Below are positions 7,900 through 39,024 of a stretch of DNA of 64,000 bases, piece after piece. How positions within the stretch are numbered: the first letter of the stretch is position 1; every line of letters begins with the position of its first letter. A program made the translations under genes and the position numbers. The notes below the pieces were generated by a model. It ran no database searches. It was given only the letters and a program-made list of their open reading frames with translations, and was not told the DNA's origin. Source of the DNA: Nemertoderma westbladi (Eukaryota > Animalia > Xenacoelomorpha); the NCBI GenBank assembly GCA_032718475.1, contig JAUCBJ010000699.1, positions 66,496-130,495 of the forward strand, read 5' to 3'.

Positions 7900-9126
7900 A
7901 TGCACAACCTAAGCATCTGTAAAAATAATAAAACTTTATTTACTGTGTTTACTTTCGTGAGTGTGATACTTCTACTGTACCTGGTACAGAGGGGTGGTAT
8001 AGTTCGAAATGGACTCCCTGTTTACAGAGAATTAGCGGTGATAAACGTGACGCAGAGATTGATAGAACAAATGGACGACAGAATATCTAACTCTGTTCAA
8101 CCAAATGGAACGAATGCGACTATTTCGCACGGAAAATGCCAGAAGAGAATGAATATTTTTTACCTTAAAACCCACAAAACCGGGTCCCGTACCACAGTTA
8201 CCATGTTTATTAATCACGCTATCGCTAACAATCTCACACCCGCGTTGTCTGACAAAGAATCCTTCGTAAAACGGGGAGATAGGCAATGGAGTTACTGGTG
8301 GGGCCAACATTTAAACAAGTTCACACGACATCCTAATGTTTCATTTGTCCACGGGCGGTTTAACATTGATGTTAAAAGGCTGATGCCACGAGATACCATC
8401 TATATTGTCGGCATCAGAGATCCTTCGAGACTTATCAAATCGTACATCACTTATTATCGTCCTTACTCTTACTTCCGAGACGAAAATCATGTTGTACTCA
8501 AAAATTCGAATGATATTTATGAATCCTTCATAAATAACCCAAATGGTACGACGTTTAATAGACGTTCTTTTATAAATCCTTTGCTATACGAATTTGGCTA
8601 CGATATAGATTCACCCAATGAGAGTGATTATGATGGTATTATAAAAGAGATTGATGAGGAATTTGATTTGGTGATTTTATTGGAATATTTTGACGAATCG
8701 ATGATTTTGTTGAAAAATTTAATGTGTTGGGAATTTGAAGACGTCGTTTATAGGAGTAAAGGTGTGCAAAACGAAAAACTCTATATTTTTGATGCAGATA
8801 AACTCAGAAATATAAATATTGGGGATTGGAAACTTTACAAACACTTCAATAAAACACTTTGGGATAAAATAGAAATGTTTGGTTTTGAGAGAATGGAGAG
8901 AGATTTAAAAGTATTTAGAGAAATGAAACGGCGAATAAATTCCGACTGTTTAGATAAAAACTCAATTAAAATTAAAACGAATAAAGTAAAGTGTTTTATA
9001 CTTTCGTGTGGTGACGAGAATATAACTGTCGGAATGTTAATTGATCTTACAAATAAGCGCAAAGATTCTAGTAAGGCTGTAGTTTTGTACCGCGAGGCAG
9101 CTATAAAAGATACCTTTATATGTTAA
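7900..9126 (+). CDS. GAL3ST-like: Galactose-3-O-sulfotransferase family protein (Golgi type II membrane), single exon
   Basis: 408-aa ORF; N-terminal TM helix; 5'-PAPS motif FYLKTHKTGSRT; 3'-PB motif IRDP; FDLVILLEYFDESMILLKNLMCW; DWKLYKHFN. Confidence 0.9.
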   Translation: MHNLSICKNNKTLFTVFTFVSVILLLYLVQRGGIVRNGLPVYRELAVINVTQRLIEQMDDRISNSVQPNGTNATISHGKCQKRMNIFYLKTHKTGSRTTVTMFINHAIANNLTPALSDKESFVKRGDRQWSYWWGQHLNKFTRHPNVSFVHGRFNIDVKRLMPRDTIYIVGIRDPSRLIKSYITYYRPYSYFRDENHVVLKNSNDIYESFINNPNGTTFNRRSFINPLLYEFGYDIDSPNESDYDGIIKEIDEEFDLVILLEYFDESMILLKNLMCWEFEDVVYRSKGVQNEKLYIFDADKLRNINIGDWKLYKHFNKTLWDKIEMFGFERMERDLKVFREMKRRINSDCLDKNSIKIKTNKVKCFILSCGDENITVGMLIDLTNKRKDSSKAVVLYREAAIKDTFIC

Positions 9127-9149: not shown

Positions 9150-9348
9150 AGTTATGGGTGAATGAATGGTTTCTTATTATTATTACTTTTGTTGGGCACA
9201 CCTTTGCAAAGCCGGGAATGACGTCAATGAGGGATCGAGATGGTGACCTCCGGGTTGGAAGTCTGACACTCTAACCATTCAGCTAGCGGCTCAGGTAAAC
9301 GGTAGACCTGATAATACTGGTACCTTGTATGTCCGCAATTTACCTCAT
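9150..9348 (-). mobile_element. tRNA-derived SINE-like repeat, left arm of an inverted pair
   Basis: Reverse complement of TAGCTGAATGG (A box) ... TCGATCCC (degenerate B box); homologous to 9564-9740 and 36552-36728. Confidence 0.65.
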
Positions 9349-9563
9349 AATGTATAATAAATATACCGGTCGCATTTCTCTATGGGTATGACAGTCCTGT
9401 CTCAATTAGTTGTTAGCGTGTTTAATTAATTAATCATTGTGGCCGTGATGGTTCATGGTTAATATACAATACCCTTACATTGTAGCGAGTACTGTAGAGT
9501 GTAGGCTAGGGTTGAGCACAGTAGCGGCATCAGATGATGGTATTGACAGATGGGAGGCCATGA

Positions 9564-9742
9564 TGAGGTAAATTGCGGACATACAAGGTATCAGATGGTA
9601 TTTCCAGGTCTACCTTGATCCTGATCCACTAGCTGAATGGTTAAAGCATCAGTTTTCCAACTCAGAGGTCACCAGTTCGAACCCTCCCACCTGGACGTCT
9701 TTGCCAACTTTGCAAAGTTGTGCCCAACCAAAGTTATAATGA
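9564..9742 (+). mobile_element. tRNA-derived SINE-like repeat, right arm of an inverted pair
   Basis: GAGGTAAATTGCGGAC leader; TAGCTGAATGGTTAAAGC A box; CCAGTTCGAACC B box; A/T-rich tail. Confidence 0.65.
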
Positions 9743-19576: not shown

Positions 19577-21495
19577 CAGGGCTTGCAAAGGGGTCCTACT
19601 AAATACTACAAAAAGCACAAAACAAGCACAAAAAAGCACAAAAAAGTCAAGAAAAGCACAAAAAAGTCAAGAAAAGCACAAAAAAGCACAAAAAAAGCAC
19701 AAAAAAGCACAAAAAAAGTAAAAAAAAGCACAAAAAAGTAAAAAAAAAGCACAAAAAAACATTCTCACATCAAGAGACATGGGGGGGGGGGGGGGGGGGG
19801 CGAAAATATAAGAGATATTGTTACAGACACCCCCCACATACGAAGGTAACCCATACGCCTATGATTGATTAATTTGCAATGTTCTGACCTACAGTATGTA
19901 AATAACCATAATAAATATAATAAGAAAATAAACATAATAAAACACATACAGTATAGAGATTAATAGCTTAATAAAACTACAGTAAATTACGATCGTGGGA
20001 AAGAACACCCAGGATGTAAGGCACTCATGGGGGTCGTTAATTAAGGTAAAATAAAATAGAATATTGACATATAAGATAAGTACGCATGAACTCCTAAACA
20101 ACATTGCAAACAATCTGGCAGTTATAGAAATTTCAAAGTATACAGTAGTGTTACAACAGCAGTGGTTAAACCCAGGCAGGAACTGTGTTTCCAACAGACG
20201 CAGATATCGTAACCAAGGCAGTTCCGACCTAAGCAAGATTCTTGCAAGTATGACTATGACTAATAATCATCATACTTAGTTTTTTAGTTTAGTTTAATAC
20301 ACTCTTTAATAATTCACATAAACATTCATTTAAAAAAAAACTTGTCCTCAGACGTTATCGATCACCCACTCGAGAGGTTCGGGCAGACCGTGATGTGATA
20401 ATTGTACAGTATGTCGATTTATCGGTGAATAAATTAAAGTAATTAACCAGAACGCTGATAAGTTGACATAATGTGACAATAACAAAGTCTATTACAGTAT
20501 TATAAGTTCTATCCTGATATTTGAATTGAACCATCTTTACATTCTGACATTAGCCTGATATTGCACTTGGGTGTTCGTGGTAGGGCTGTACCTATGTAAG
20601 TGCTCGTGCTGGTGCTCACTCACTGGCAGCTATATGACATGAAAGCATACTGGACATGTGATTATCGTTCCGGTAGCCTAGACACTACTGCACTACATGA
20701 TATTGCATCTATCATCTGTTCTATTACAAGCTCAATAAACGATCAGTTTGCTTTTTTGTGCTTTTTTTTTTACTTTTTTGTGCTTTTTTTTACCTTTTTT
20801 GTGCTTTTTTGTGCTTTTTTTGTGCTTTTTTGTGCTTTTCTTGACTTTTTTGTGCTTTTTTGTGCTTGTTTTGTGCTTTTTGTAGTATTTAGTAGGACCC
20901 CTTGCAAAGTAGGTTTTTGTACACCTAGGTTTTTATCGATTTTTGTCAAAAACCTAAAATTTGAAAAAAGCCTAAAACTAGGTTTTTAGGTTCACAAAAA
21001 AGAGCCAAATTGCTTGTTTTTTGAAAATTTCTGATGGCAAAAATATGAACCCCACAGACTAAAGTCTTTTGAGTTTCTGTCTTTTAACTAAGCCGACAAT
21101 AAAACCTCACTGCTGGCAGCTGGACTGACTAATATTACCCTATCCCTTTTTAAAACAAAAATCAAATAGATTACGGTATTCAGATATTTTAATATATTGT
21201 AGGCTTACAGGTATCTACTGATCTACCAGTGCTGTATAAAATATAATCTTGAACAATTGCGGCCCCATATAATTTATCTAACCATAACGAATGAACTGAT
21301 GAACCAATTCAGCTCAGGCAGTCAGGTCAGGTCAATGAGTCAATCTAATCAATCAATACAGCAATATACAAATACAACCTGACAGAAATACTACAAAAAC
21401 CTAGCAATAACATTCAAAAACCTTCAAAAAACCTGCAAAAACCTAACAAAAACCTAATTTTTGTTTTAAAAAACCTAAGGTTATTGCCAGCCCTG
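19577..21495. mobile_element. Non-autonomous hAT-like element (outer element of a nest)
   Basis: TIR CAGGGCT(T/G)GCAA; 8-bp TSD ATCCAGAC at 19569-19576 and 21496-21503; AAAACCTA subterminal repeats. Confidence 0.85.
19591..20900. mobile_element. Foldback/MULE-like non-autonomous element nested in the hAT left terminus
   Basis: ~150-170-bp TIRs starting GGGTCCTACTAAATACTACA and built of AAAAAGCAC repeats; 9-bp TSD CTTGCAAAG at 19582-19590 and 20901-20909. Confidence 0.85.
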
Positions 21496-22037: not shown

Positions 22038-22582
22038 TGTGACGGGATCCAGGAAGGATCCCGGTTTATCCGGTTTGTCAATTCACGCGAACCCGCCGTG
22101 TGTGAAAGATAAAAGAGTTTACGTTGTTCGTTGTATATAATATTCGGGATATGTATAGTATAGATATAGATAATGGATAAGATAAATATTGTTGTACGCG
22201 GAAGGCGGGAAACGGTAATTTAAATCCCGGTACTTCCCTAGCTAAACTATTGCTACTGTAACACCAATAACACTGAGATAACTGAATGAGATGATTACTG
22301 CCAACTGGTTATATTGCACGGGTTGGCCTTGTTACTGTACCTAACCGATGCCTTTTCCCCCCTCTGATTGGCTAATGTCCCTATTGGCGCCCTTTGGAGT
22401 GTTTCCGTTCACTCCAGCTATTCTCTCTCGGTTAGGGGTTTGGCCCCTGACCCTCATTGTGTGTTTCTCCTTCCCACTTTGTTGGGGTGACACGAGTTGT
22501 TAGTTACCCAATCTCGTGGCCCCCAATATTGCTTAACGGTTGACTTTATGGGTTTGTGTTAGCGGAATTGAATAAGCTAACA
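22038..22582 (-). repeat. 3' LTR (545 bp)
   Basis: Direct repeat of 35490-36033; by eye ~5 substitutions plus one 1-bp indel. Confidence 0.97.
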
Positions 22583-22592
22583 CTCCCCCCCA
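22583..22592 (-). other. Polypurine tract (plus-strand primer)
   Basis: Sense strand reads a G run plus AG directly abutting the TGTTAGC start of the 3' LTR. Confidence 0.85.
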
Positions 22593-23284
22593 TGCTATCT
22601 TCCCGGTGAGAAGATAGCATCCACCTCAAGTGCGCTACAATTCCGCTGGATCCCGATCTATTATCGGGTGTGGGGTGGAACTATTTTCTTTCGGAGCCGG
22701 CTTTCCAGGCCGCTCCCTATGGGTATGATATCGCTACCCGTTTCGCCTGGCGTCCCATGTCGGGCCGATCGTGCGCTCCTCACATGACTTTTGTTTCCCC
22801 AACACTTCGCCACTTTAACTCTACTCTGTTCTCACCCTGACTCTCCTCTACTTCTCCTCACTACCGCTCTAACTCTCGGACTTCCCTGTCCCTCACTCAG
22901 CCTCTTATTCCTCCCACACACTTGAATTGCATTCGCACTCTCTCTGCACTCTGCACTATCACCTCTTACTCGACCTCCCTTTGACTACCCCATCCCTTCT
23001 TACGAATCTCACTCCCCCTTTGTGCCGTCGCACTCAAGAAATGTGAAGTCGTCTGGTGTCTCGTCCATAGTACCATAGTCAGTTAGCCCCCCAGTCCCAG
23101 TAGCTAATTGAGAAAGGTTGAATGACTATAGTACTTACTTCGAACGTATATTTCATTGCTAAACTACTGATTACTACGTACATACATATAATTGCACTTA
23201 TTTAATTATTTGCATCAGTTTGAATTTGTACTTAATAGTTCGTACGTCCCACGTGGCGCCTTCCAGGCGTACCACATTGAAGTC

Positions 23285-25894
23285 TCAGTTCATCCCCCCT
23301 GACTTTGGGAACCACCTCAAGTCTTTCCCTTTGCCGTCCTCCTCCCTGGGTCGTTTCCTGGTCACTACCGCTCCTCTGGGATCCGCTTTCTGTCTTCGGA
23401 CCCTCGCCGCCACCTCCTTACTGATCCCGGTCGTTGGCTCCCTGGGTGCTGGTGTTATCAGCTCCCGATATCGCTTCGCGGGTGGCCCCTCCAAATGGCC
23501 CTGTTGTCTCCCCCTGGTGGCGTCCCATATGATCATCTTCATTGCCCGCGGCACGTGCTCCGCCAGGAAATCCCTAAACTCCCCTCGGTTCTGTGGCGTC
23601 CACCTGTCCAAATACCTTTGTGTATTCATCACCCCGGCATACGACGCCGCCGTTGCTACCTCTTGATAGGTAAACGGTAGCCTCCGCTTTATGATTTCCA
23701 TGTGAGCCTCCTGATTGATGAGGAAGAAACCCCACTTGAACTCCTGGGCCTTCATGCGCTGGCGCGTCATGGCCCCGACGTCGGCCCACTCCTCGAATCT
23801 TCTGAACTTCTCTTCGTCGTCCATCCAGTCGCACTGGCGTCCGTAGTGTCCCCGAAAGTTGCACTTTGGACATCGGTTATGCAACCGTGGACACGCCCCC
23901 ATCCTGTGGCTCGACTCGCGGCAGTAGAGACAAAAGGTTCCCTTTTGGAACCGGTACAAACAGCTCCTTTCCTGGTGGGTCTGTCTCCCACAGTAGTCGC
24001 AACCGAGTACCAATGTCTCCCGCCTCACGTCGTCTTTCGTCCCAAGCGATCTCCGCGGTCTGTGGAGTCGCTGGTAGGCGAACTTCTGTACGTTAGTGTC
24101 CCTGTCTACGTCGATCTCTCCGCCCCTCTCGGGCATCGTCTCCCCGAATACTACCCGTGGTGCCGTCCCCGGTTGCTCGCCCAACCTGATAGTGCTCCCC
24201 GCGAAATCCATCGCCGGCTCCTCGTGCACCCAGGCCCGCTTGCCGGGTCTATCCCAAAAGGCCCTCGCCCCACTGGCCGTCACCACCCTCCCGCCAACCC
24301 AGTCCGTGTCCGAGTGGCCAATCCTCTCGATGGGCGGCACCTCTCCGAACTCGTCGTCATGTTCCTCCTCCTCTGGCAGTGGCTCCAACCCCGGTATCCC
24401 GATGGATCCACTATGTCCCTTCCCGCCTTGGCTCTCGCCCGTAGCTCTCCATCCCTCTAGCTCCCTTAACTTCCTTGGCGGTTGGTCGCCTTCGGCGCCC
24501 GCTGGTGTGGGCATCGCTTGCAACCCCGACGTCGACTGTTTCGGCGATCCCACCGTCCATCCCAGTTCTCGCCCTAGAGACTCCCCCGAACTCCCTGACG
24601 AAGTCCAACGAAGTTCGTCTAAGCCTGCCTGTTCCTCGAAGCCGTAACTCTGCGTCCTGGCCTCCTCCTCCCTCTCCTCTGCTTCTATCCTCTCCCGTCT
24701 AGCGACTTCTTCCAGTCGCTTTGCCTTTCGTCTATCCGTCTCTAGCTGCTCCCATCTCTGATACGGCGTATCTGTCTCCCCGTCTATCAGATGTCGGCTG
24801 TTGTAGTACACCGACTCGCCCTTCAGCCCCGGGTGGTCTACCAGACCGTCGAAGGCCGTTTTAAAGGCTCTCCTGTAGCTTAGGGGTGATCCCGATAACA
24901 GAAATGCCGCTGGTTCCCTCTCGATAACCGCGGTCAAGAATAAGTTAAGCAAACTTATCATCATCCAATCTTCCTGCAGGATATATCGCTTCTGATATAC
25001 CTTTATCGCTCCTCTGCGGAATTGATATACCTCTTGCCTCCCCGGTCTCGCTCCCCACTTTAGCGAGTTCGCTAGTTCTGCTCCGTATTCCTCCCTGAAC
25101 TTCCCCCAGTCCATCGGTTTGTGGCATACGAGCCCCAATAGCTGGCCCATTGCAACCGCCCCGCATTGGCCTGTGTTCCCGACTACCCCCAACCCATCTG
25201 GTGCCGTCATAGCCATCAAGACCTTCTGCATATCCAGAAGGTTGGTGGCGTCCAGACCGATGATTCTCTCCGCGTCCTCGCGAATCGCCGATCCCACCTT
25301 CGTCGTCGACTTCTCTCTTACCAAGACTTGCACCGCTTTCGGCAACCGGTTTAATTTCGGCCCCTCCTTCTTCCCATACGTTCCTAGATCGAATAAGAAA
25401 ATGTCCCCATTTGGCGCGGCCAAATGTAGGAGTATGGTCCTGGCCGACCCCGCTGATCCTCGTCTCGAACCCTCCTCGTCTTCCACGGTTCCCTCGTCGT
25501 CTAGGATCATATATCCTCCCCTGTTGACGGACTCTATGAATCTCTTCCAATCCTTCTTCGGCGACTCCCTCGGGTACTTCGGAATCCTGAACTTCGCCTC
25601 GTCCCCTTTCACCACGTAGTGGAAGTGTTGGAAGATCGCGTTGTCCAGCGATGGCGTCCCGTAGGTCCCGACCAGCCGCTGTTCGTGCATCTCCCGGAAG
25701 TGGTCCTGCAGCGCTCGTGCCGCGTGACCCTTTTCCAACCTCTCGTAGTATCCTCTCGTCTTCTCTTCCGGATGCCTCTTGGTGAAATCCACCAGTATCT
25801 CCTTTCCTCCTGACTCCGCCTTTCTCTTTCTGATCAGTTTTCCCACCATTTCGAACTCCTCCGATCGCTCACCTATAAGGTGGTGCCTTACCAA
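23285..25894 (-). CDS. Retroelement accessory protein: DEDDy-type 3'-5' exonuclease-like domain plus three CCHC zinc knuckles
   Basis: Intact 869-codon ORF (TTG start in the track; first ATG at 25849); ILDDEG (ExoI), LLHLAAPNGDIFLFDL, KVGSAIREDAERI (ExoII), YQKRYILQED (ExoIII-like); three CX2CX4HX4C motifs at aa 632-688. Confidence 0.8.
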   Translation of the reverse strand: MVRHHLIGERSEEFEMVGKLIRKRKAESGGKEILVDFTKRHPEEKTRGYYERLEKGHAARALQDHFREMHEQRLVGTYGTPSLDNAIFQHFHYVVKGDEAKFRIPKYPRESPKKDWKRFIESVNRGGYMILDDEGTVEDEEGSRRGSAGSARTILLHLAAPNGDIFLFDLGTYGKKEGPKLNRLPKAVQVLVREKSTTKVGSAIREDAERIIGLDATNLLDMQKVLMAMTAPDGLGVVGNTGQCGAVAMGQLLGLVCHKPMDWGKFREEYGAELANSLKWGARPGRQEVYQFRRGAIKVYQKRYILQEDWMMISLLNLFLTAVIEREPAAFLLSGSPLSYRRAFKTAFDGLVDHPGLKGESVYYNSRHLIDGETDTPYQRWEQLETDRRKAKRLEEVARRERIEAEEREEEARTQSYGFEEQAGLDELRWTSSGSSGESLGRELGWTVGSPKQSTSGLQAMPTPAGAEGDQPPRKLRELEGWRATGESQGGKGHSGSIGIPGLEPLPEEEEHDDEFGEVPPIERIGHSDTDWVGGRVVTASGARAFWDRPGKRAWVHEEPAMDFAGSTIRLGEQPGTAPRVVFGETMPERGGEIDVDRDTNVQKFAYQRLHRPRRSLGTKDDVRRETLVLGCDYCGRQTHQERSCLYRFQKGTFCLYCRESSHRMGACPRLHNRCPKCNFRGHYGRQCDWMDDEEKFRRFEEWADVGAMTRQRMKAQEFKWGFFLINQEAHMEIIKRRLPFTYQEVATAASYAGVMNTQRYLDRWTPQNRGEFRDFLAEHVPRAMKMIIWDATRGRQQGHLEGPPAKRYRELITPAPREPTTGISKEVAARVRRQKADPRGAVVTRKRPREEDGKGKDLRWFPKSGGMN

Positions 25895-26327
25895 GGCGCA
25901 ATATAAGTGAGTGATGCAGTTAGGATGGTCTGTACGGTCTGATAATGGCCTATTTTCTATCTAACTACGCCCTTTTAGCCTAATTTCTATTACTTAATTT
26001 TGTAGCTAACAAATGTACCTTATTTGCAATTTCTGTCCGTTGCTTTAATTATGTTCCAGAATAATTTTCCTCCTGTTACCATAATTTGTAATTTTCTTAG
26101 CCCTATTTATTCTATTTTATTTCTAACCTATTTCTACTATTTACTGCTTATGGATTATTCTATTTCATAATCCACATTCTGACCTACGCTATGGGCCTGT
26201 GCAGTACAGCAGTATATGTCGCGTGGCCTACACGATCTATCCAACTGTACTCATATGCCCCCCTCTTGCTACTAACTACTAACTAATATCTATACTATGT
26301 ATACCCTTCTACCTCTCTCTCTTACTA

Positions 26328-26906
26328 ATCGGTACTACGTACCCTCTTACTACTCTCTAACTAACTAACGGTACTACGTACCCTCTAACTCTAACTCTAC
26401 TAACGGTACTGCATACCCTCTTACTACTCTCTAACTCCACTAACGGTACTACGTACCCTCTTACTACTCTTCCAACTCTACTAACGGTACTACGTACCCT
26501 CTTACTACTCTCTAACTCCACTAATGGTACTACGTACCCTCTTACTACTCTTCCAACTCTACTAACTGTACTATGTACCCTCTTACTACTCTTCCAACTC
26601 TACTAATGGTACTACGTACCCTCTTACTACTCTTCCAACTCTACTAACGGTACTACGTACCCTCTTACTACTCTTCCAACTCTACTAACGGTACTACGTA
26701 CCCTCTTACTACTCTTCCAACTCTACTAACGGTACTACGTACCCTCTTACTACTCTTCCAACTCTACTAACGGTACTACGTACCCTCTTACTAACCTCTA
26801 ACTCTACTAACGGTACTACGTACCTTCTAACTGACTAACTAACTAACTAACTAACTCTAGGTACTACGTACCTTCTAACCGACTAACTCTAGGTACCACG
26901 TACCTT
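26328..26906 (-). repeat. Internal ~41-bp tandem array, ~15 copies of a GGTAC-N3-GTACC hairpin
   Basis: Plus-strand unit CTACTAACGGTACTACGTACCCTCTTACTACTCTTCCAACT between the pol stop and ORF3. Confidence 0.92.
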
Positions 26907-27043
26907 CTAACTAACTCCTAACTAACTAACTCTAATTTTTATTTATTTTATTTTTTATTTTTATGTGTAGGAAGGGCGTCTCGCCCTCAATCCCACCCCC
27001 CTCAGTCCAAACTTGGACGACTAAACTACACTCTAACTCCACC

Positions 27044-30000
27044 CTAAGGTGCCCCTTCTAATAGACAGCATTTCCCTACAGCTCTCCTGTAGGTTTTTCT
27101 GTCTTTCGCACCGATCTTTCCACCTATCCGCACTTCTACCGATCGGACATCGGAGTAAGTGCCTACGACTCTCGCCAACCGCCACTGGTTGTTGATGATA
27201 GTATCATCCGTAACGATTACGAGATCTCCCTCTCTTAACTCCCTATTTGACTTCCTCCACTTGCTTCTTCTGTGAAGCGTGGGTAGGTATTCCTCAACCC
27301 ACCTCCTCCAATACTCTGCGCTTATTGCTTTAGCGACCTTCCAACTCTGGCGGGAATGTATGTCATCTGGGTCTACACCCCGCATATCGATGGTCGCTGG
27401 CCTTTCCATTAGAAAATGGCTGGGTGTCAGCACATCTAATGACTCAGGGTCATCATTCTCCGGATATAGCGGTCTGCTATTAATGATCCCCTCGCACTTC
27501 GCAAGCACTGTCCTTAAGACGTCCTCAGTGACCATGTGGGTGTTCATTAGCTTCGTCATAAGACGCTTTGAACTGCCCACCAGTCTCTCGACGCATCCTA
27601 GTGTATGTGGTGCATACGGCGTCCTTCTCTCCCACTTTACTTGTCGTCGTCTCATGGCCGCCCTGACTTCCTCCCCTTCCAAGATGTCCAAGGCCTCTGC
27701 CATCTCGTTCTCTGCTCCCACAAAGTTGGTTCCGCTGTCGGAGTACATTACTGCGATCGTCCCACCTTTGCGGTCTCTGAATCTTTCTAATGCATTAATA
27801 AATGCTGATGCGGTTGCATCTTGGGCGAGTTCTATCCCTACCGCCCGCGTGTTGTTACATACGAAGATAATACCGTAGCGTTTCTCCGTGTGCCGCATCA
27901 CCTTGATCTTTATCGGCCCGAACATGTCCACACCGCAATGTGTAAATGGCGGGTCGTGCTGTCTTACTCTACTCGCTGGTAGTGGCGCCATCTCTTGTAT
28001 GGCTCGCTCCTTCTTCGCTCGTCGGCAGGTCTGGCATTGCCCCACTACCGCTTTTACCTTCTTCCTCAACTGCTTGACCCAAAAGGTCCTCCTTATCTCC
28101 GTGAGAGTTCGGTTGGTGCCCCCGTGCAATATCGACTTATGGGAGTCCCAGATAATCTGGTGGACTATTGGCGATCCTGTGGGAATGATGATGGGTTTCG
28201 GTGGTACGACTATGCTGTTGTTGTATCCCACCCTAGAATTCATTACTAGAATCCCGTCGTCATTAAGTTGTGGCGACAGCGTGATCAGCTCGCTGTCCCG
28301 TCGAAGGTGCTGTTGGTTACCGACGCGTTCCACCTCGTCGCCATAGTTCTTCCGTTGTTCATAGCGGATGACTGCCTTGGCCGCTCCTTCCAGATCTATG
28401 GTTGTCCTGATCTTCTTGTCTTTGCCAACTCCCGCGAGGAAATTCCCGAAGGCTCTCCAGTACGCCACTAATTTCTTGGTCTTATACCAACTAGAGCTGT
28501 AGCTGAGGAGTTTATCTGTCGGGTTATCGCACAGTTCTTCTGGTTTAGGTTGCACGTCCCTTATCTCCCTCACCATCTGGGAGTATATCTCTTCTCCCTC
28601 TGAATCTCCCTCTTCTCCTTCTGACACTACCTCTCCTGAGTCCGGGTCCACCTTTCTCATCGGCGGCCAGGCCTCCTTGTCGCTCAGAAACTGCGGCCCG
28701 TGTTGCCACAATCCTTCCTTTTTTAAGAAAGTGTGGCGTGCCACGCCCCTTGATAACAAGTCCGCTGGGTTCTCGTCCGTTGGGCAGTAGTGCCACCTTT
28801 CCAATTCTGTGGTCGCCCTTATCTCGTCCACCCTGTTCGCGACGAATATTGGGTATCTCGTCCTTTCGTTATGTAGCCAACCAAGCACTACCATGGAGTC
28901 CGTCCAGTAGTGTGTCTCCACTATGTTGGGAATAGTATCCACTAGGTAGGCTGTGGCTCTAACTCCTAGTCTCGCAGCTGTCAATTCTAATTTGGGAACT
29001 GATGCTGAATCTGGCGGCGTTGACTTTGCTTTGCTAAAGGCCAGTCTGGGCTTGTGAGCCCCCTCTCGTTGTACTAAATAGAGTGCCGCTCCGTACGCCT
29101 CCAACGACGCATCGGAGAACATGTGTAGGTCCAGATTCGTCATGTTCCCATCCGGGAAATACACTCGTGGCATGTTGTATGTTCCCATCTTCTCCAAGTC
29201 TCCTGTCCACTTACTCCACTGTTTCTTGATTTCCTCTGGTACCTCTACGTCCCACTCATCCTTCAATTTGTATACTCTCTTGAGTATCTGTTTCCCCGTG
29301 ACTAATAATGGGGATGCTAGACCTAGGGGATCGTATATCCTTGCTATATACGACACATAGCCCCTCTTCGTGTGGATGTCTGCGCCCTCCTGGCTCAGCT
29401 GATACTTCAGTTCGTCTGTCTCTCTGTTCCACACGATTCCCAATGCCTTCTGTTGAGATTCTGTTCTCTTGTTCGCCATGTCCTGCCCTTTGGCTGTTGT
29501 GGGATTATCCATGGTCGATTCTGGTCTCTTGTCCTCTATCGCCTTGATAAATTCTTCCGAACTGGATTGGAATTTGGTCAGGTTAAAGCCGGATCCTTTT
29601 AGGATGTCGCGAACCTCGCGCCCTGTGTCCAGTATCTCCTTAACCGTATTTCCAGACTCCATTCCGTCGTCTACGTAGAAGCCGCGTCGAATCATATCGA
29701 CGGCCCTAGTGCTGTATCTATCTTCCTTCCCCTTCACCGTATCTCTCACTGCCATAGTCGTCGTAAATGAAGACGACTTGGCTCCCATATTTTGTACTAC
29801 CATCTTATATGCCGGTATTATCGACGGTTCTTCCTCGCCGTTATACCATAAGAAGCGTTGACTGTCGCTATCTTCCTCCGTTACACGGACTTGGTTGAAC
29901 ATGCCTTCTATGTCACACGTGAAGGCGTGTTTCCCATTTCTAAATCTAAGTAGGACCTCTATCCCCGAGTTGTATATGTTTGGACCTTCTAGCAGGTAGT

Positions 30001-32437
30001 CGTTTAAGCATTTTCCGTTGGTCTTTGCCGATGCGTCAACTACCATCCGCAGTTTACCTTTCTTTGGGTCTAAAGCCACGTGGAGTGGCAGGTAATATGT
30101 CCTGTCCGTGTTTGGTTCGTCGACCGGTAACTCCACGGCCCATCCTTTCTCGACGTACTTCTTAATCGTTCTGTGGATGTACTCATTCTTCTCGGGGCTC
30201 CGTTTTAGTGTTTGTTTCAGCTTGCGGAGTCTCGTGAGTACCATCCCTCTATTATCGGGCAGTGGTAACTTCGGTAGTTTCCATACCATTCCTACGGTGT
30301 ACCGCCCCTCGTCGCACTTCATAGACTCCTCTACGCTCTGCTGAGCCTGTTTGTCTTCCACCGAGGTCCCGACCCCGGTCTCCTTTAATCCTTCAAAATC
30401 CTGTCTGAGCAGTCTTTTAAGTTGCTCCTCTGCTCTCTCATCACTCATTTCCTGCATAGTTCCCGCGAACATGCATCCTGATGTCTCCGACATCCTAAAT
30501 GGTATCTTGCTCTTGATTGGGCCACTTAGCGTCCACCCGAATGGTGTCAGTATTGCCACCGGGTCAGACTGCTTGTCTTCGCCGAAGACCGTTTGCATTC
30601 TTTCGTGGGCCGTTGGGCAGTCCATTCCTACTATGATGGATACCTTCCTAACGTCCACATCTGGGATTGAGAAGTCAATATCGTCCAGAAATTTATATTG
30701 TTCGACCTCGATGTTGGTTGGCCGTCTGGCATTGATGTTTATTGACTCTATCACTTGGATGGGGTCGATGCTAGCCCCATAGTCGCATCCTGGTGCTATT
30801 GCTGCGATGGTGCACCGTCCGGTTCTCATCTCCAGGACCTCATCTTTGCTGGAGATGGTTGTTACCGCCATTCTGCTTGGCCTCGTTCTCAATCCTATTT
30901 CTTCGGCCACCCAATCCTCGACTAATGTGAAGGCAGCTCCACTATCAACCAGCATTAGTGTTGTTACTGATCGATTGCCTTCTCCAATCACTCGTACGGG
31001 TACTACCCCAAGTAACACCGTTCCTCTCTTCTTCGCCCCTACTGTGCTCGTTGCCATCGTTTGGCCTTTCCTTTGACCGAACTTGACCGGCATCTCCTTG
31101 CATTCCCTAGCTCTATGTCCACTCATCACACATCGCGAGCAGATCTTGTTGCTCGCCGCATAATCTATCTGATCTTGCCTAGATAGCGCTTGCCAGTACC
31201 TGCAGTTCATGGTTTGATGAAGCGCATTTGTATGTAGCTGGCATTTGCTCTTTGGGTCGTAGCCCTCCTTATACAGTGCATCGCGTATCGCAGCTGCGTT
31301 TGTACCAAAGTCCCTACTATTCTTATTGTTTGGATTCGGCCTACTGGACGTACTGGGGTTATATTTATTCGTGTTGTTATTGTTCCCCTGTCCGTTCCAT
31401 GGTGTGGTCTTACTTTCGGCTACCTGTGGACTTGCAGTCCCCTGCGTCGCTGCATATGGCAGTGATTGCCTGAGCCTCGGTAATGCGTTTGATGTATTGT
31501 GCTCTGGTTTCGGTCTATGGTAATCCGTCTTCGGTCCCTTCCCCAGGCTATCTTCGCTATAGACTGGGTCGGTTATTAGTTCAGCTTCGTAGTTTAAGAA
31601 GCTTGACATTTCTTCTAAACCCGGTTCCGCACCCTTCCTATCTCGAGTGGAGAAAGCGATTTTCCTCCACTTGTTGCGCAACCACATCGGTAGTGCCTGC
31701 GCTATCGTGGTGATGTTGTTGGACGCATTGAGTTCGTATGGCGCGTCTAGTGTCTTTAACACGATCAGCGCCTTCTCAACCTTGTTCGCAAATGTCTTAA
31801 TGCTAACGGGATTATCCTGTAGGCCACCCGATGTTATGCCTCTCAGGGTCTGCCTGATGATCTTGGCTGGGTGTCCGTATTCCCTGTCCAGTGCCCGCCA
31901 TGCTGTCGTGAAGCCGCCCTCTCTGCCCTGATATTGCCTCACGATGTCATATGCTGGGCCTCCTGTGTATACTTGCAAATACTTTAGGCACTCCGTCTGC
32001 GTTAAGTTCTTTGTTAGTATTTCATTGCTATACATACGCCGAAACTGGAGATATTCTTCCGGCCTACTCCCATCGAATTTGAATGGTTCCACGGGTGGTA
32101 ATTCGATCCTTGTTTTTAATGCATCGATCAATGTGGCCATCCCCATCGCCTGCGCTTCCAATGGATTCGATGGATGTTGTATAGTTCCTCCTGTTGGGTG
32201 CCGTCCGCTCGTTCTATTTTCTGCCTTTCTATGGCTTGGGTATATCATTGGGGGTAGCGGCCCCCTCCATATTTCTGTGTCACACGACCTATTTTCATCC
32301 AATGGTCTCGTTGTCCTTGCTCCTATCGGGGTATATTGTTGATATTGCGATGGGGGAATGTCACCCTGTCCCCCCCCCCCCCCCCCACCGGTATTTATGG
32401 TATTGGGGTTGATGTTAATATATTGGGGCCCATGCAT
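27044..32437 (-). CDS. gag-pol: BEL/Pao Gag(core)-Pol polyprotein
   Basis: DUF1759-like LPPVEPFKFDG; Cys/His knuckle CSRCVMSGHRAREC; protease LVDSGA; RT CDIEGMFNQV...FYVDDG; RNase H FSDAS...WTDSMVVLGW; integrase HHCC and D(MFG)-D(SG)-E(RL); C-terminal WRRWVEEYLPTL. Confidence 0.97.
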   Translation of the reverse strand: MHGPQYININPNTINTGGGGGGGQGDIPPSQYQQYTPIGARTTRPLDENRSCDTEIWRGPLPPMIYPSHRKAENRTSGRHPTGGTIQHPSNPLEAQAMGMATLIDALKTRIELPPVEPFKFDGSRPEEYLQFRRMYSNEILTKNLTQTECLKYLQVYTGGPAYDIVRQYQGREGGFTTAWRALDREYGHPAKIIRQTLRGITSGGLQDNPVSIKTFANKVEKALIVLKTLDAPYELNASNNITTIAQALPMWLRNKWRKIAFSTRDRKGAEPGLEEMSSFLNYEAELITDPVYSEDSLGKGPKTDYHRPKPEHNTSNALPRLRQSLPYAATQGTASPQVAESKTTPWNGQGNNNNTNKYNPSTSSRPNPNNKNSRDFGTNAAAIRDALYKEGYDPKSKCQLHTNALHQTMNCRYWQALSRQDQIDYAASNKICSRCVMSGHRARECKEMPVKFGQRKGQTMATSTVGAKKRGTVLLGVVPVRVIGEGNRSVTTLMLVDSGAAFTLVEDWVAEEIGLRTRPSRMAVTTISSKDEVLEMRTGRCTIAAIAPGCDYGASIDPIQVIESININARRPTNIEVEQYKFLDDIDFSIPDVDVRKVSIIVGMDCPTAHERMQTVFGEDKQSDPVAILTPFGWTLSGPIKSKIPFRMSETSGCMFAGTMQEMSDERAEEQLKRLLRQDFEGLKETGVGTSVEDKQAQQSVEESMKCDEGRYTVGMVWKLPKLPLPDNRGMVLTRLRKLKQTLKRSPEKNEYIHRTIKKYVEKGWAVELPVDEPNTDRTYYLPLHVALDPKKGKLRMVVDASAKTNGKCLNDYLLEGPNIYNSGIEVLLRFRNGKHAFTCDIEGMFNQVRVTEEDSDSQRFLWYNGEEEPSIIPAYKMVVQNMGAKSSSFTTTMAVRDTVKGKEDRYSTRAVDMIRRGFYVDDGMESGNTVKEILDTGREVRDILKGSGFNLTKFQSSSEEFIKAIEDKRPESTMDNPTTAKGQDMANKRTESQQKALGIVWNRETDELKYQLSQEGADIHTKRGYVSYIARIYDPLGLASPLLVTGKQILKRVYKLKDEWDVEVPEEIKKQWSKWTGDLEKMGTYNMPRVYFPDGNMTNLDLHMFSDASLEAYGAALYLVQREGAHKPRLAFSKAKSTPPDSASVPKLELTAARLGVRATAYLVDTIPNIVETHYWTDSMVVLGWLHNERTRYPIFVANRVDEIRATTELERWHYCPTDENPADLLSRGVARHTFLKKEGLWQHGPQFLSDKEAWPPMRKVDPDSGEVVSEGEEGDSEGEEIYSQMVREIRDVQPKPEELCDNPTDKLLSYSSSWYKTKKLVAYWRAFGNFLAGVGKDKKIRTTIDLEGAAKAVIRYEQRKNYGDEVERVGNQQHLRRDSELITLSPQLNDDGILVMNSRVGYNNSIVVPPKPIIIPTGSPIVHQIIWDSHKSILHGGTNRTLTEIRRTFWVKQLRKKVKAVVGQCQTCRRAKKERAIQEMAPLPASRVRQHDPPFTHCGVDMFGPIKIKVMRHTEKRYGIIFVCNNTRAVGIELAQDATASAFINALERFRDRKGGTIAVMYSDSGTNFVGAENEMAEALDILEGEEVRAAMRRRQVKWERRTPYAPHTLGCVERLVGSSKRLMTKLMNTHMVTEDVLRTVLAKCEGIINSRPLYPENDDPESLDVLTPSHFLMERPATIDMRGVDPDDIHSRQSWKVAKAISAEYWRRWVEEYLPTLHRRSKWRKSNRELREGDLVIVTDDTIINNQWRLARVVGTYSDVRSVEVRIGGKIGAKDRKTYRRAVGKCCLLEGAP

Positions 32438-35421
32438 CTATCCGCAATAATTCCCCCCTCCCCTGGGTATATGTTATATCCTTTCGTGCTGTAGTCATAC
32501 TGCTGCACTGGTACCGGTATAGGCCTATCAGCTTCTGGCCTACCTGCCGGTATGTACTCCGCGACTTCCGGGTTTAATTCCGTCGTCCGCGCTATCCTAT
32601 CGCCTACATTATTCCTGTCAGCATGGCCTATGGTATATGCAGTAAGGCCTACAGTATGTCCTACAGTCTGTATGTATTGCTCGGGATCGAAGTTTATTCT
32701 TCTCGAATAATCCTCCCCGCGGTTACCGTACTCTCGATCCGTTGGTATATCCCATCGGAAAGTTTCTCTTCGACCCTCTCTACTACTCTCGTCTACGTGC
32801 CGGTACATCGCTATCCGTCCTCGCTCTCCTGTCGTTCGCGGCGATACTTCTTCTGCTGTCTTCTCTTCTCCTCCTCTCAGTGCAATATTCCCGCTCATGA
32901 GATCTCTCGTCGACCTCCCGGTTAAACTCCACTGTTCTTCTTCCCTCTTCTGATCGGGCTCGACGCTTCGTCCGCCCTCTCGCGACATCGACCTGCTTCT
33001 CTCTGCTCGATCGCACGCCGCTGGGGATACTCGCAATCCCCCTATTACTCTCCGTCGCCGGGTGTTGCGGTTTACCTGATTCGGCCCGCGCATTATCCAC
33101 TGACGGCTGTGGGACACTCTCTGCCCCCCCCCCCCCCCTTCGCCACTAATTTCTCGTTGTGGGGCTCCTGTAGCCCCCCCCCCCCACTCGCCACATATTA
33201 TACCGCTACCTCTAACTTCTCTTCTACACCCCTCTCCAGTCGACACTATATTTCTACTGCGGCTGGGTTCACTTACCCCTGCCTCTCTCTCCACTACTAC
33301 TTGGCCTATCGGGCCTACTCCGGGTTGGCTCAACCCCGCCACCTCCTGCCTACTAACTACGTGGCCTACCATGCCACCGTCGGGTCGACTCAACCCCGCC
33401 ACCTCCTGCCTGCTAACTACGTGGCCTACCAGGCCACCGTCTGTCGGCTCATGCACGTCCGACGCGTTCGCGTTAATAGCACCTATATTAGAAACGGAAT
33501 TATTTTGTTCGTTCGAAATAGAATCATTTGGATTATTTTGCGCGACTACGTTATTTGAATTATTTTGTAAATTCGGGCTTGGATTATTATTTAAATTATT
33601 TGAGTTATTATTATTTTCTAAATTTAAATTATCATTCGGATTATTTTGCACGTTTAAATCAAAATTATTATTTAGGCTATCTGTATTTAAATTCAAATTA
33701 CTACTACCAGGCAAAGTATTTCCTGCAATATAAGTTTGGTTAGGATTATCCGATACGGTACCATTAATATTAACGTCGTCTACAGTAGCATTATTATTAC
33801 CCCCCCCCCCCCCCCCCCCGCCCGTACGGTCACACCAGTTTCGTGTCTGTCGTGCGGTCCCTGTAAGTGGGGTATTAATAAATGTATCCACGGCCCCTGG
33901 CTCCTCGAGAATATTCGAGCCAGCCCCGCTCTCAGATGCCCCTATCCGCGCCAGTTCTAGTTCGCGTATGCGTCTAGCCTTGTACTCTATAAGCTCCTTT
34001 TGCTCTCTTTCCATTTTTTCTCGCAAACGCTTCTCTCTTGCCATTCTCTCCTGGTCCTCCCGTGCGTTCTGGTTGGCCAGTTCCGCCTCTCTCTTAGCTC
34101 GCTCCCTTCACCTCGCCTCACGCTCTCTACGCTCACTTTCCTCTCTCGCCTCACGTTCCTTGCGTTCCTTTTCCTCTCTCGCCTCACGTTCCTTGCGTTC
34201 CTTTTCCTCTCTCGCCTCACGTTCCTTGCGTTCTGCCTCACGCTCTTTGCGTTCTGCCTCACGCTCTTTGCGTTTACTTTTCTCTCTCGCCACACGCTCC
34301 TCTTGTTCCCTCCTTTCTATTTCCTCACACTCCTTAAGGCTTTCCACGGCCTTCTCGGCCCTCTCCCTGGTTTCTCTAATCAGTACTGCTTCCCTCTCTA
34401 GTTGTATTCTCCCCTCCTCTAACCGCCTATTTAACTCTCTCTGACCTTGTTCTATCAGGTTGAGATGGTACGTGGCATTTATCTCTCTCACCCGTCTTTC
34501 TTTCACGGAGGATGTAGCAGACTTATCGGTTACGACGGATTCCCTCCGCCTTCCCGACCTACTAACTCTCCCCCCCTTTCCAGAACTTCCCCCGACCGAC
34601 GAGATCGAATCCTCAGGCTCAACCTCGGATTCGCCCTCCTCAGGTCTCCTCCAACCCACAAATTTTACACCCTGGGCATCGACTAAGTATGGCCCTACGT
34701 ACACTGCACTAGGTTGCATACCCCTACACCGCCATAAATCACACAGTTCCTCTGCAACCCCTCTCGCTCTCTCCTTGGCCAGTTCTCTCTGCCCGAAACG
34801 CATTAGATAGCTAAAATGTCTATTCGACTCATCTAGTCCTCTCGTTAACTTCACCTCATCTATCTCCGTCCCCTTCTTGGCCTCCTTTAGTAGCTTCCGG
34901 GTCGCGTTGTAGGCCCGTCGAAGTTGATCAGAAACCCCGACGTCCTCGTTGCCGACCTCTCCTCCGTCTCTCCGGGTCCGACGTCGTACCGGCGGCCCCA
35001 CCGTCGCCGTTCCGGTGGGCCGTCCGTCGCCCTCGGCCTGTAGCTGGCCAGCGACATCGGTACCGACATCTCCCCCGTCTCTCCGGGTCCGGCGTTGTAC
35101 CGTCGGTCCCACCGTCGCCGTTTCGGTGGGCCGTTCGTCGCCCTCGGCCTGTGGCTGGCCGGCGACGTCGGCACGTCGACCCTCGTTCTGTGTCGACTCG
35201 TCTCCTTCTCCTTCCAACTCACCCTCTCGGTCTCTCAACTCGACTCCCCCTCCTCTCGACTCGACCTCTGGCTCCAGACGGCCCCCCTCGTCCTGAACTG
35301 CCGGATCACCCGTTACCGATGGGTCTGGCGACGTGGGCCTATACCGCCTGGTCGCGGCCTCACGGATCGTTAGTTCTTCGTCCGGGGTCCGCGTCGGTGT
35401 CATCTCTCCTGACTGACTCAT
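32395..35421 (-). CDS. gag: Long low-complexity/coiled-coil Gag N-terminal region interrupted by one in-frame TGA (34108-34110)
   Basis: ORFs 34108-35421 and 32395-34044 are in the same frame and joined by open codons after TGA; PEDSISSV motif followed by an E/R/K coiled coil, typical of BEL Gag N-termini. Confidence 0.7.
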
Positions 35422-35489
35422 CTCTCTTCAATAGATTGGTGGCTGGTAGTTACTGAGTTCAACTAGGGCGGCAGCTCTGATTCAATTAC

Positions 35490-36033
35490 TGTGACGGGAT
35501 CCAGGAAGGATCCCGATTTATCCGGTTTGTCAATTCACGCATCCCCGCCGTGTGTGAAAGATAAAAGAGTTTACGTTGTTCGTTGTATATAATATTCGGG
35601 ATATGTATAGTATAGATATAGATAATGGATAAGATAAATATTGTTGTACGCGGAAGGCGGGAAACGGTAATTGAAATCCCGGTACTTCCCTAGCTAAACT
35701 ATTGCTACTGTAACACCAATAACACTGAGATAACTGAATGAGATGATTACTGCCAACTGGTTATATTGCACGGGTTGGCCTTGTTACTGTACCTAACCGA
35801 TGCCTTTTCCCCCTCTGATTGGCTAATGTCCCTATTGGCGCCCTTTGGAGTGTTTCCGTTCACTCCAGCTATTCTCTCTCGGTTAGGGGTTTGGCCCCTG
35901 ACCCTCATTGTGTGTTTCTCCTTCCCACTTTGTTGGGGTGACACGAGTTGTTAGTTACCCAATCTCGTGGCCCCCAATATTGCTTAACGGTTGACTTTAT
36001 GGGTTTGTGTTAGCGGAATTGAATAAGCTAACA
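35490..36033 (-). repeat. 5' LTR (544 bp)
   Basis: Direct repeat of 22038-22582. Confidence 0.97.
35732..35838 (-). promoter_or_regulatory. Putative LTR Pol II promoter: CCAAT x2, TATAA and TCAGTT initiator
   Basis: Minus strand: CCAAT at 35838-35834 and 35822-35818; TATAA starting 35765; TCAGTT with A at 35735, exactly 30 nt downstream. Confidence 0.55.
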
Positions 36034-36431: not shown

Positions 36432-36728
36432 GTTATGCGTGAATGAGGTGTTTCATATATTATTATAACTTTTTGTTGGGCACAGCTTTTACAAAGTCGG
36501 CATTGACGTCCAGCTGGGATCGAACTGGTGACCTCCGGGTTAGGCTATGGGGAGGTAAATTGCGGACATACAAGGTATCAGGTAGTATTTCCAGGTTTAT
36601 CTGTTACCTGAGCCGCTAGCTGAATGGTTAGAGCGTCAGACTTCCAACCCGGAGGTCACCAGTTCGATCCCACCTGGACGTCAATGCCGACTTTGTAAAT
36701 GCTTTCCCCAACAAAAAGTTATAATAAA
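36432..36728. mobile_element. Second head-to-head pair of the tRNA-derived repeat (left arm truncated)
   Basis: Minus arm ~36432-36542; plus arm 36552-36728 with TAGCTGAATGGTTAGAGCGTCAGACTTCCAA...CCAGTTCGATCCC. Confidence 0.7.
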
Positions 36729-37456
36729 ATTGGAGTACACCAATTGGAAATCTGCATCCTCCGCTTTCCTCTGCATATCCTCTAAATTCAATTTAATTAG
36801 GATTAATCATTGAGGTAACCACAATTATGAATAAGAATGTTACATTACAAGTGTTATGGGGACTCCCCATAATTATTGCAAGTATGCTGACCATAATCGA
36901 CGCAATCAAAATAAAGCAATAAAATCGACTCAAATAGCAGCTGATTACTCCCAAAAATAACACTATCCTGTTCTATTGACTTTCGTTTATTTTTTTTTGG
37001 TTATTAAATATAAATTGGTTGGAATATTTTTAGGCAAAATACTTTCTGGGTCAGAGTGCTGATAATGTAGATAGTTTTGATAAAGTATATAGTGCACTAT
37101 CGGTTATATAGGATGTTTTTTTACTGGAAATGATGCACACACAAGTCATTCGCCCGTTTCGTATTAGTGCTGGAATGGTGAAAGCGCATTTAAGGCATAA
37201 TGGATTATTAAAACTTGTTATATATTTACACATACTGGCACATTCTGAAAAATAAAATTGATACATGCAAAGAAAAAAAGATTTTTTGTTTGATAAGGAT
37301 AGTCTTATAGTTTCACATTTATATTATAAATTTACTATGCATTTACATTTGTTTACAAGAAAGTCTATTATTATTGCCTTAATTAATGAATAATTCGCAT
37401 AATATTAATTAATTAATCTCATAAATATAGCGTAGAATATCTATTTTATCAGTTTA

Positions 37457-38668
37457 TTATAACTTTGCTTTAGTTTCTGGCTTCGCTAATAGCGGTGAAA
37501 ATTTAAAATTTGGATCAGTAACAGCTGGCCTCTGGTACCGAAACCCAGTAATATCCCATCGAGTCATCCCATCTAGCGACAAATCCGCGCAAATTTTACC
37601 CAAAACAGAGGCAAACTTGTAGGCATGACCAGCGCCGCAGCATACAATAACCTCTGGATGACCAATAGAGGCGAGGCTATCCACCACAAATTCGCGATCT
37701 CTTGTTACTGTGTAGAGACACGTCTTGGAATATAGAATATCTCCAAGAGACCCTGGTATTACCTCTGAAAGGAACTTAACGCACGCATCCAACCTCACCT
37801 GGTCCACATCAAATGTTCTCGTATCAGCAGTGGTTGGAGCTCGACAATAATCGATACCAACTTTAGTACCACTGTTCCCATGAATAGGAAGGCCGTAGAT
37901 ATCATACTTATCAGCATGATAGATGTAGCAAGGAAACCGTTCCTTCGTGAAGTCTTTGATATTCGGAGTTGCAAAGTAATGAACTTGTTCTTGAGATACG
38001 ACAACGGGAATGTTTGCTCCAAATTGATTTATTACCTGATTCACCCATGCCCCGGAAGTTACAATTACCTTCCTTGCAAAAAAATCACCCTTTGTTGTTG
38101 TAACACATGTATAATGGCCAAATGATTTGCAGTGGATAATCTTTGCTTCTTGCACTATATGAGCGCCATGTTTCCGCGACAACTGAATATGAACAGCATT
38201 GGCCAATGCTGCATCAACTAGCCCACCTTCAGGGTCAAAATGAGCCAAGTGTTCTCCAACTAACTTAAATTGAGGAAACTTCTCCATCATATCTTGAGTA
38301 TCCAGTTGATAACAAGTATTTCCTGTTTCTCGCATAGCCATCATGTAATCAGCTGCCACATGTTCTCTACCACTACCTTTCCTTGCTATGTCTACTGCCC
38401 CTGTTTTATATACCAACTGTAAGCCACTTTCTGCTTCAACATGCTCCCAACATTGGTAGGCCCCCGCAGCTAGACGGCAGTATTTACCATCATGGTATAG
38501 GTAACGAATGATTCTGGATTCATCCTGCGATCCTCCATTATGATGACCAAGTTTGAATTGTTCCAGGCCGATGACATTTTTACCAAGTCGCTGTGATAAC
38601 CAGTAGAGGGTGGAACTGCCAATACCTCCAAGGCCAATAACCAAACATTTGTAAATGGTTTCAGACAT
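37457..38668 (-). CDS. PIPOX-like: Monomeric sarcosine/pipecolate oxidase-family flavoprotein (MSOX/SolA/PIPOX family), peroxisomal, single exon
   Basis: VIGLGGIGS FAD motif; GGSQDESRIIR; CLYT covalent-flavin Cys motif; GAGHAYKFAS; C-terminal -AKL PTS1. Confidence 0.9.
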   Translation of the reverse strand: MSETIYKCLVIGLGGIGSSTLYWLSQRLGKNVIGLEQFKLGHHNGGSQDESRIIRYLYHDGKYCRLAAGAYQCWEHVEAESGLQLVYKTGAVDIARKGSGREHVAADYMMAMRETGNTCYQLDTQDMMEKFPQFKLVGEHLAHFDPEGGLVDAALANAVHIQLSRKHGAHIVQEAKIIHCKSFGHYTCVTTTKGDFFARKVIVTSGAWVNQVINQFGANIPVVVSQEQVHYFATPNIKDFTKERFPCYIYHADKYDIYGLPIHGNSGTKVGIDYCRAPTTADTRTFDVDQVRLDACVKFLSEVIPGSLGDILYSKTCLYTVTRDREFVVDSLASIGHPEVIVCCGAGHAYKFASVLGKICADLSLDGMTRWDITGFRYQRPAVTDPNFKFSPLLAKPETKAKL

Positions 38669-39024
38669 ATCTTATATATGTTGTTACTGAATATAAGAAG
38701 AAATATTTAACCTTATTGTATAGTAGATATATGTCTATAAATTATTGATATGGTCCACCTAAATGGTTTAAATATGTGAAGATCTATTTTATGTTAAATA
38801 CGCAAATACTTATAGAATAGTATTTGATAGTATTTGATAAATTAATGATACCATTACATACTGTAGATGGATAGAGTAAGATCAGCAATTCCACAGTATC
38901 CTGTGAGTTTTGTTCATTGTATTTGAAAGCAAAGCCCACACTATAACTGTATAGTTTTGTATTATTTTCATTTGTAATATTTAATAAACTGAAATTGTAG
39001 TTTCCATAACAGTAGGATCTAAAG

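Follow-up and report, generated by a model that had tools for sequence, protein, structure and literature searches.

How is minus-strand DNA primed in a retrotransposon whose primer-binding site (PBS) position carries no tRNA-type site? The question is raised by a full-length BEL/Pao LTR retrotransposon (22038..36033, reverse strand, 13,996 bp) in the 64-kb stretch of DNA analysed here, referred to as the window. Belpaoviridae are described as having a PBS whose 18 nt pair with the 3′ end of tRNA-Arg or tRNA-Gly, genomes of 4.2–10 kb and LTRs of 0.2–1.2 kb, and their replication is poorly understood (ICTV, PMC8742986). Self-priming, where no tRNA site is present, is described in the available parts of the literature for Tf1/Tf2, Tj1, Tosmo1-3 and the Tf1/sushi group, all of them Ty3/gypsy chromoviruses (PMC7175516, PMC10085805, PMC4600332); in Tf1/sushi the PBS can pair with the opening 11 nt of the element's own mRNA, and helices flank the PBS. 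For Tcn1 chromoviruses and the TAR/Houba/Osr-1 Ty1/copia lineages of plants, the accessible text of PMC6317226 presents self-priming as a prediction from sequence alone, and self-priming in Tf1/sushi, Tcn1 and TAR-type copia elements is treated further in the available excerpts of PMC3601003, PMC11042837 and PMC6934838. The accessible parts of PMC554778, PMC3118150, PMC8220671 and PMC9094657 contain nothing on BEL priming. A search of the open literature (Repbase, GyDB and subscription journals being outside its scope) found no report of self-priming in BEL/Pao. A nematode BEL element reportedly encodes its own tRNA-like primer, which would be a different mechanism.

Structure of the element

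The element is flanked by a 5-bp target-site duplication (AATTA, 36038-36034 and 22037-22033), and all the parts described below lie on the reverse strand. Its 5′ LTR (35490..36033, 544 bp) and 3′ LTR (22038..22582, 545 bp) both run TG...CA and differ by five substitutions and one indel, with one difference at the candidate primer site (22221); the element is young. A polypurine tract is found at 22583..22591. The 5′ LTR contains CCAAT boxes at 35838 and 35822, a TATA-like box (35761..35767) and Inr-like motifs (35730..35741) that predict a transcription start at 35739 or 35735, the second candidate being the better spaced. R-U5 (35740-35490) is without AATAAA or ATTAAA, and the sole variant hexamer found lies at 35522.

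ORF1 (32395..35421) is low in complexity and charged, and an in-frame stop codon breaks it at 34110-34108. It probably encodes the N-terminal part of Gag; read from its first ATG at 35421 it gave no Pfam match, to a Gag domain or any other, and it has no match among the Pol hits. The next ORF (27044..32437, 1797 aa), which lies in a different frame and overlaps ORF1 by 43 nt, encodes the Gag core and Pol: Pfam matched DUF1759, an aspartyl protease, Peptidase_A17, Integrase_H2C2 and DUF5641 but not RVT_1, and a YVDD reverse transcriptase (RT) motif was seen in the translation. The combination of DUF1759, protease, Peptidase_A17, integrase and DUF5641 on 32437-27044 therefore identifies the element as BEL/Pao. 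Its Pol shares 30–38% identity with the best database matches and, in the Pol phylogeny, falls outside all well-supported groups, at the end of a long branch; the hosts of the database hits suggest a Sinbad/Suzu-like placement within BEL/Pao. ORF3 (23285..25846) has a putative DEDDy-type 3′-5′ exonuclease domain and three CCHC knuckles.

Like the Belpaoviridae, the element combines a DUF1759 Gag, Peptidase_A17 and DUF5641 in the order PR-RT-RH-IN with LTRs of 544/545 bp, a polypurine tract and a 5-bp target-site duplication. Unlike the family as described by the ICTV, it has no PBS for tRNA-Arg or tRNA-Gly, measures 13,996 bp and carries an exonuclease ORF3. Because the Pol phylogeny, and not the PBS, places the element, we read its PBS as an exception to the family description. 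ARAGORN detected no tRNA in the 64-kb window, and Rfam gave only two sub-threshold snoRNA-like matches in the element.

Elsewhere in the window we found a 58-bp satellite repeated over 270 times in an array (43900-64000), long host ORFs for a galactose-3-O-sulfotransferase (7891-9126, forward strand), an FAD-dependent oxidoreductase of the DAO family (37457-38671, reverse strand) and a protein weakly matching DUF6451 (3253-4023, forward strand), and inverted-repeat pairs of the small-DNA-transposon type (19588-20903, 36457-36730, 9187-9686 and 1468-4019).

The PBS position and its match within the LTR

A preliminary description of this DNA had reported that the PBS position (35480..35489) lacks a TGG, and indeed none occurs from the LTR end to the first ATG (35421). 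It had also reported that the 9 nt following the 5′ LTR are complementary to an internal LTR segment (35675-35667). This match is perfect, the sequence it quoted is correct, and the 9-bp duplex stops exactly at the LTR boundary, as was claimed. The segment is the element's only Watson-Crick match of at least 9 nt anchored at PBS position 1, and it lies 60–68 nt after the predicted transcription start. The candidate self-primer site in R (35667..35678), whose predicted 3′ end is 35667, adds 2 bp across a 1-nt bulge to the 9 perfect pairs (−9.1 kcal/mol); it ends in AC, 177 nt before the LTR end. The 3′ LTR has the one-base mismatch noted earlier (A at 22221, C at 35673 in the 5′ LTR), and its copy of the site pairs with the PBS over 6 bp only, as did 301/1000 in the nulls.

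Could such a 9-mer be a chance occurrence, as the preliminary description had allowed? An anchored 9-mer arose in 0.42–0.54% of 5000 dinucleotide shuffles, and in 1.2–1.4% of 5000 when offsets of 0–5 were permitted; considering all 9-mer positions in window 1-43000 gave about 0.6%, and two further nulls gave 5/1000 and 9/1000. The match exceeds chance (~0.4–1.4%), and the excess is modest, the figure of ~1% being the one before correction for the search.

The same signature in distant BEL relatives

Metagenome contigs were scanned with a Pol alignment and the best 80 of 505 loci were taken. A distant direct repeat was present in 33 of these 80 and fixed the LTR end in 12. Outside the 12-locus count were 47 of the 80 loci, which had no usable repeat, 14 loci scanned blind without a null, L073 and six more (L014, L017, L033, L034, L038 and L060). 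In all 12 relatives, TGG was absent from the first 7 nt after the LTR end, and in all 12 a perfect partner of 10–15 bp was present in the element's own LTR, with the match set 0–4 nt after the LTR end. The partner was contiguous in three relatives and formed across a GT-AG junction in nine.

In those nine (L009, L012, L016, L021, L025, L030, L036, L047 and L055) the PBS matches nothing but the junction that would form if a GT-AG intron of 67–186 nt were spliced out of the LTR. In the window's own LTRs no junction in either LTR reached 9 Watson-Crick pairs, or 11 with G·U, that could represent a splice-built primer. L047 and L055 are one family, and the LTRs of L016, L025 and L039 end in TA instead of CA.

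Ten of the relatives were tested against nulls, in which at most 1/1000 internal controls and at most 3/1000 shuffled controls were as good. The PBS sequences differ from one relative to another and each matches only its own LTR; among cross-family pairs, 1/110 reached 10 bp. With offsets of 0–2, five of the ten relatives were positive; the range was widened to 0–4 post hoc, with all nulls recomputed over the extended range. Between L020 and L039, which share 77% Pol identity, one matched change affects both sides of the duplex. Several further features recur: (i) the partner ends in AC in 8/10 relatives, (ii) a poly(A) hexamer follows it in 9/10, (iii) in three of the four relatives with a TATA box it lies ~95–135 nt downstream of the TATA-derived start, and (iv) in L008 its end lies 175 nt before the LTR end, vs 177 nt in the window element. 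In 10/10 relatives the duplex lies no more than 2.2 kcal/mol above the minimum free energy (MFE) structure, with a low probability in L008, L012 and L025.

The blind scan of 14 loci, run without a null, placed a top site of at least 10 bp near the LTR in seven (L006, L010, L011, L015, L018, L028 and L050). The other seven had no such site, including L064, where the match lies far inside, and L073 showed no partner at its repeat end, which is not CA. In L010 (2523-2945) a single nucleotide separates a candidate LTR end from a TGG, and the same 10 nt find a match in the element's own LTR as well; L010 may represent a step between tRNA priming and self-priming. The exact U5 pattern of the window element had no match in the metagenome contigs, and a collection of viral contigs yielded no relative of the element.

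How far do these loci speak for the window element? The ten null-tested relatives share 44–61% Pol identity with one another and the relatives share 30–38% with the window element. Given that identity and the long branch of its Pol, the relatives therefore support self-priming in this element by analogy only.

Predicted leader fold and variation across the family

The leader region folds better than 100/100 shuffles (z −3.46). In the predicted structure an R segment (35688..35700) forms 13 bp with the leader (35456..35468), a clamp downstream of the PBS, and a U5 segment (35522..35549) pairs with R 35682-35656; a U5 terminal hairpin (35494..35514) adjoins the LTR end. The U5 segment holds a competing partner of the 9-mer: in the MFE structure the 9-mer is paired with U5 35535-35530, and from the predicted start it has a probability of ~0 of being paired with the PBS. 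The duplex of 9-mer and PBS is thus predicted not to form, because the U5 helix competes. Forcing it costs 4.7 kcal/mol over the MFE, compared with 0–2.2 kcal/mol in ten relatives, and keeps both flanking helices. The window duplex is also the weakest of 11 (−7.3 vs −7.7 to −17.1 kcal/mol in the relatives). From this copy alone, the case for self-priming is weak.

Sequencing contigs of the family covered the LTR region in four runs (1818, 757, 929 and 69 contigs) from one organism and three studies, one of which runs may be the source sample. The percentages given here are of depth, not copy counts, and the sites are unphased. At 35460 the majority letter (82–100% of depth) turns a G·U pair of the clamp into A-U. 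Inside the 9-mer, G makes up 33/39/5/100% of depth at 35671 across the four runs, and C makes up 57/60/55/37% at the U5 partner of this site, 35533, so that the two changes compensate; depth sums suggest that both changes occur together in one X5 contig. Variants at 35529, 35541 and 35663 likewise fit the R-U5 helix.

Covariation between PBS and primer site, proposed earlier as a check on self-priming, did not appear in the family contigs: PBS compensation was absent, and the compensatory change sits with U5. Judged by per-kind counts, any matching change at PBS 35485 stays below 4% in X2, X3 and X5 (one X1 row being unseen); with 35671 G and no change at 35485, the PBS pair therefore becomes G·U. 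Among the variants listed, 40 of 233 in one survey and, in a second, 40 of 64 substitutions alongside 12 of 67 indels, there was no PBS substitution. This pattern shows the competing U5 helix to be, as judged from the variants, also under selection, which would fit a switch between partners and would also fit the Tf1-like alternative considered below.

Loss of one nucleotide at PBS position 12, just outside the duplex, makes up 9–13% of depth in three of the four runs and 0 in X5. It falls inside the stretch resembling an iMet-type site, which disfavours the decayed iMet-type PBS that had been suggested as an alternative. The 12-mer used in that comparison is presumably the plant-type iMet site. 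Loose contig ends at 35484 (eight contigs in X1 and three in X3, with low agreement) are a weak hint of a subfamily with a PBS that diverges from position 7 onward; read by eye, such a PBS might still pair with the candidate site around a bulge at 35673, an equally weak hint, and 35673 is the position where the two LTRs differ. Joints in the family contigs at 35450-35493 hint that some copies carry a PBS-like unit repeated in tandem in their leader.

A putative exonuclease encoded by ORF3

The preliminary description had called the ORF3 product a 3′-5′ exonuclease, and this label holds: at the family level its profile, modelled fold and motif residues all point to the DEDDy type. A search of 1.84 billion representatives returned 83 matches, mostly through the knuckles. 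A profile built from 33 ORF3 sequences matched EXD2 (E 1e-12), and also T. brucei RNase D with CCHC, WRN, Egalitarian and mut-7. Foldseek with an ORF3 model (mean pLDDT 65; a single-sequence fold, at pLDDT 34, was unusable) retrieved RNase D, Egalitarian, Nibbler and Rrp6 with E-values of 5e-5 to 8e-4 and a DnaQ fold. Among the acidic residues, the DxE of ExoI and the D of ExoII are both kept; ExoIII has Y, then E, then D, and in several relatives it is the E that aligns. The ORF3 alignment offered no stretch conserved enough for a scan of the loci.

Is ORF3 part of the self-priming signature? In 11/11 signature-bearing relatives the distance from pol to the LTR end is 395–773 nt, vs 5006 nt here. 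Such spacers leave no room for ORF3, and the signature is therefore independent of it; an exonuclease-domain match was likewise found in none of the 80 metagenome loci. The earlier proposal that the ORF3 exonuclease makes the primer finds no support, given this absence of room and the 3′ LTR copy that trimming would expose, which pairs over 6 bp only. The exonuclease would be an accessory of this lineage, trimming the primer end at most.

A model for self-priming and its alternatives

What, then, primes this element? We consider it reasonably likely that the element, having no tRNA-type primer site, primes minus-strand DNA with its own RNA, from the internal R segment 35675-35667 released by a cut. 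The complementarity, here and in the relatives, and the missing TGG are observed; the steps that follow are inferred. Transcription would start near 35739-35735, as predicted, and the R segment would then switch partner from U5 to the PBS, with the 13-bp leader helix and the R-U5 helix holding it in place there. A cut just 3′ of 35667, by the RNase H of RT if the analogy with Tf1 applies, would free a 5′ fragment of ~70 nt whose 3′-OH could be extended into U5. Self-priming is well supported for the group and, by analogy, moderately for this element: of the earlier claim that the element self-primes without a tRNA at this internal site, the site finds its backing in the perfect partners of 12/12 relatives, and the exonuclease step finds none.

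A rather unlikely alternative is the geometry of Tf1 proper: the transcript would pair with the PBS through its first 10 nt (35739-35730) as a pseudoknot, with the R segment gripping U5 and the leader on either side (a "pretzel"), and the 9-mer would be no more than a part of the R-U5 helix. The match, 10 nt including two G·U pairs, starts at the A of the Inr-like motif; it occurred in 63/5000 shuffles anywhere in the LTR and in 0/5000 near the predicted start, a location chosen post hoc. The Inr site presumably resembles the Tf1 primer, a likeness documented for the first five letters of the PBS. The compensation between 35671 and 35533 backs the R-U5 helix, family variation begins just upstream of 35738, and in L012 the partner starts at about the TATA-derived start. 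The MFE structure, moreover, leaves the PBS looped out between two helices, as in the three-duplex structure of Tf1 given in the accessible part of PMC10085805. Against this geometry, the pairing is worth −7.1 kcal/mol only, and −1.2 kcal/mol if the start is 35735; an insertion behind 35738, at 7–30% of depth, turns the terminal pair into a third G·U; and PBS 35485 shows no change toward Watson-Crick pairing with the Inr site. The relatives, moreover, have perfect Watson-Crick partners in 12/12 loci, mostly ending in AC.

It is also unlikely that the same site primes from an RNA 3′ end, either the 3′ R copy or a short LTR-only transcript, trimmed back to the duplex by the ORF3 exonuclease. The profile, fold search and acidic residues that suggest a DEDDy enzyme would suit such trimming, a host exonuclease could supply it instead, and in the relatives a partner followed by a poly(A) hexamer (9/10) would be present at the RNA 3′ end. 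The missing room for ORF3 in the relatives, the 80 loci without an exonuclease domain and the 6-bp pairing of this copy's 3′ LTR argue against it, as do the DEDDy ORF3s of bdelloid LTR and Penelope-like elements, for which an auxiliary role is suggested in the accessible part of PMC5408684.

Quite improbably, the match could be a by-product of three similar AT-rich motifs in the LTR (36024, 35739 and 35675), the 9-mer being kept for the R-U5 helix and the primer lying elsewhere. The chance of ~1% before search correction, the covariation with U5 and the near-zero predicted probability of the PBS duplex are in its favour; however, the match shows exact anchoring, an AC end and the distance seen in L008, and a group-wide signature predicts such a site.

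Very improbable, finally, is a host RNA primer (a tRNA half or fragment, or a decayed iMet-type site) with an incidental LTR match: the ICTV has belpaovirids primed by tRNA-Arg or tRNA-Gly (PMC8742986), half-tRNA priming is known in Ty1/copia from the available text of PMC6317226, and L010 has its TGG 1 nt after the candidate LTR end, against which stand the absence of TGG here and in 12/12 relatives, PBS sequences that are distinct and match their own LTR alone, and the common deletion within the iMet-like stretch.

Relation to known self-priming systems

Returning to priming from the internal R segment, the window element resembles Tf1/sushi in that its PBS is complementary to its own LTR without a tRNA site, and in that helices are predicted on both sides of the PBS; here the central duplex is absent from the MFE structure. 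It differs from Tf1/sushi in that its perfect partner lies past the predicted start rather than in the first 11 nt, in being BEL/Pao without a Pfam chromodomain match, and in that the partner needs a splice in 9/12 relatives. Tcn1 and TAR/Houba/Osr-1 belong to other superfamilies and to plant hosts, unlike the window element. If many BEL/Pao elements of marine animals self-prime, they would form a third LTR superfamily with self-priming and with a different geometry, namely an internal and often splice-built primer. The copying of such elements would depend on host RNA processing, and their being missed by annotation based on the PBS would be accounted for.

A broader scenario is doubtful, though conceivable: a branch of BEL/Pao would have exchanged its tRNA for an internal-R self-primer, mostly splice-built, and the present lineage would have added a U5/PBS RNA switch and finishing by its own exonuclease–zinc-knuckle protein. 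If so, that branch is large and the 14-kb lineage is its intronless member.

RNase D-like DEDDy exonucleases are also encoded by ORF3 of the bdelloid rotifer LTR retrotransposons Juno and Vesta, according to the accessible part of PMC5408684, which proposes no link between ORF3 and priming. Unlike in Juno and Vesta, ORF3 here is carried by a BEL/Pao element and joins its exonuclease to three CCHC knuckles, a fusion that recalls T. brucei RNase D. A family of proteins of 600–800 aa (P0125-P0207) likewise combines a DEDDy exonuclease with three CCHC knuckles, and several of its members lie on contigs of 7–11 kb, perhaps whole elements.
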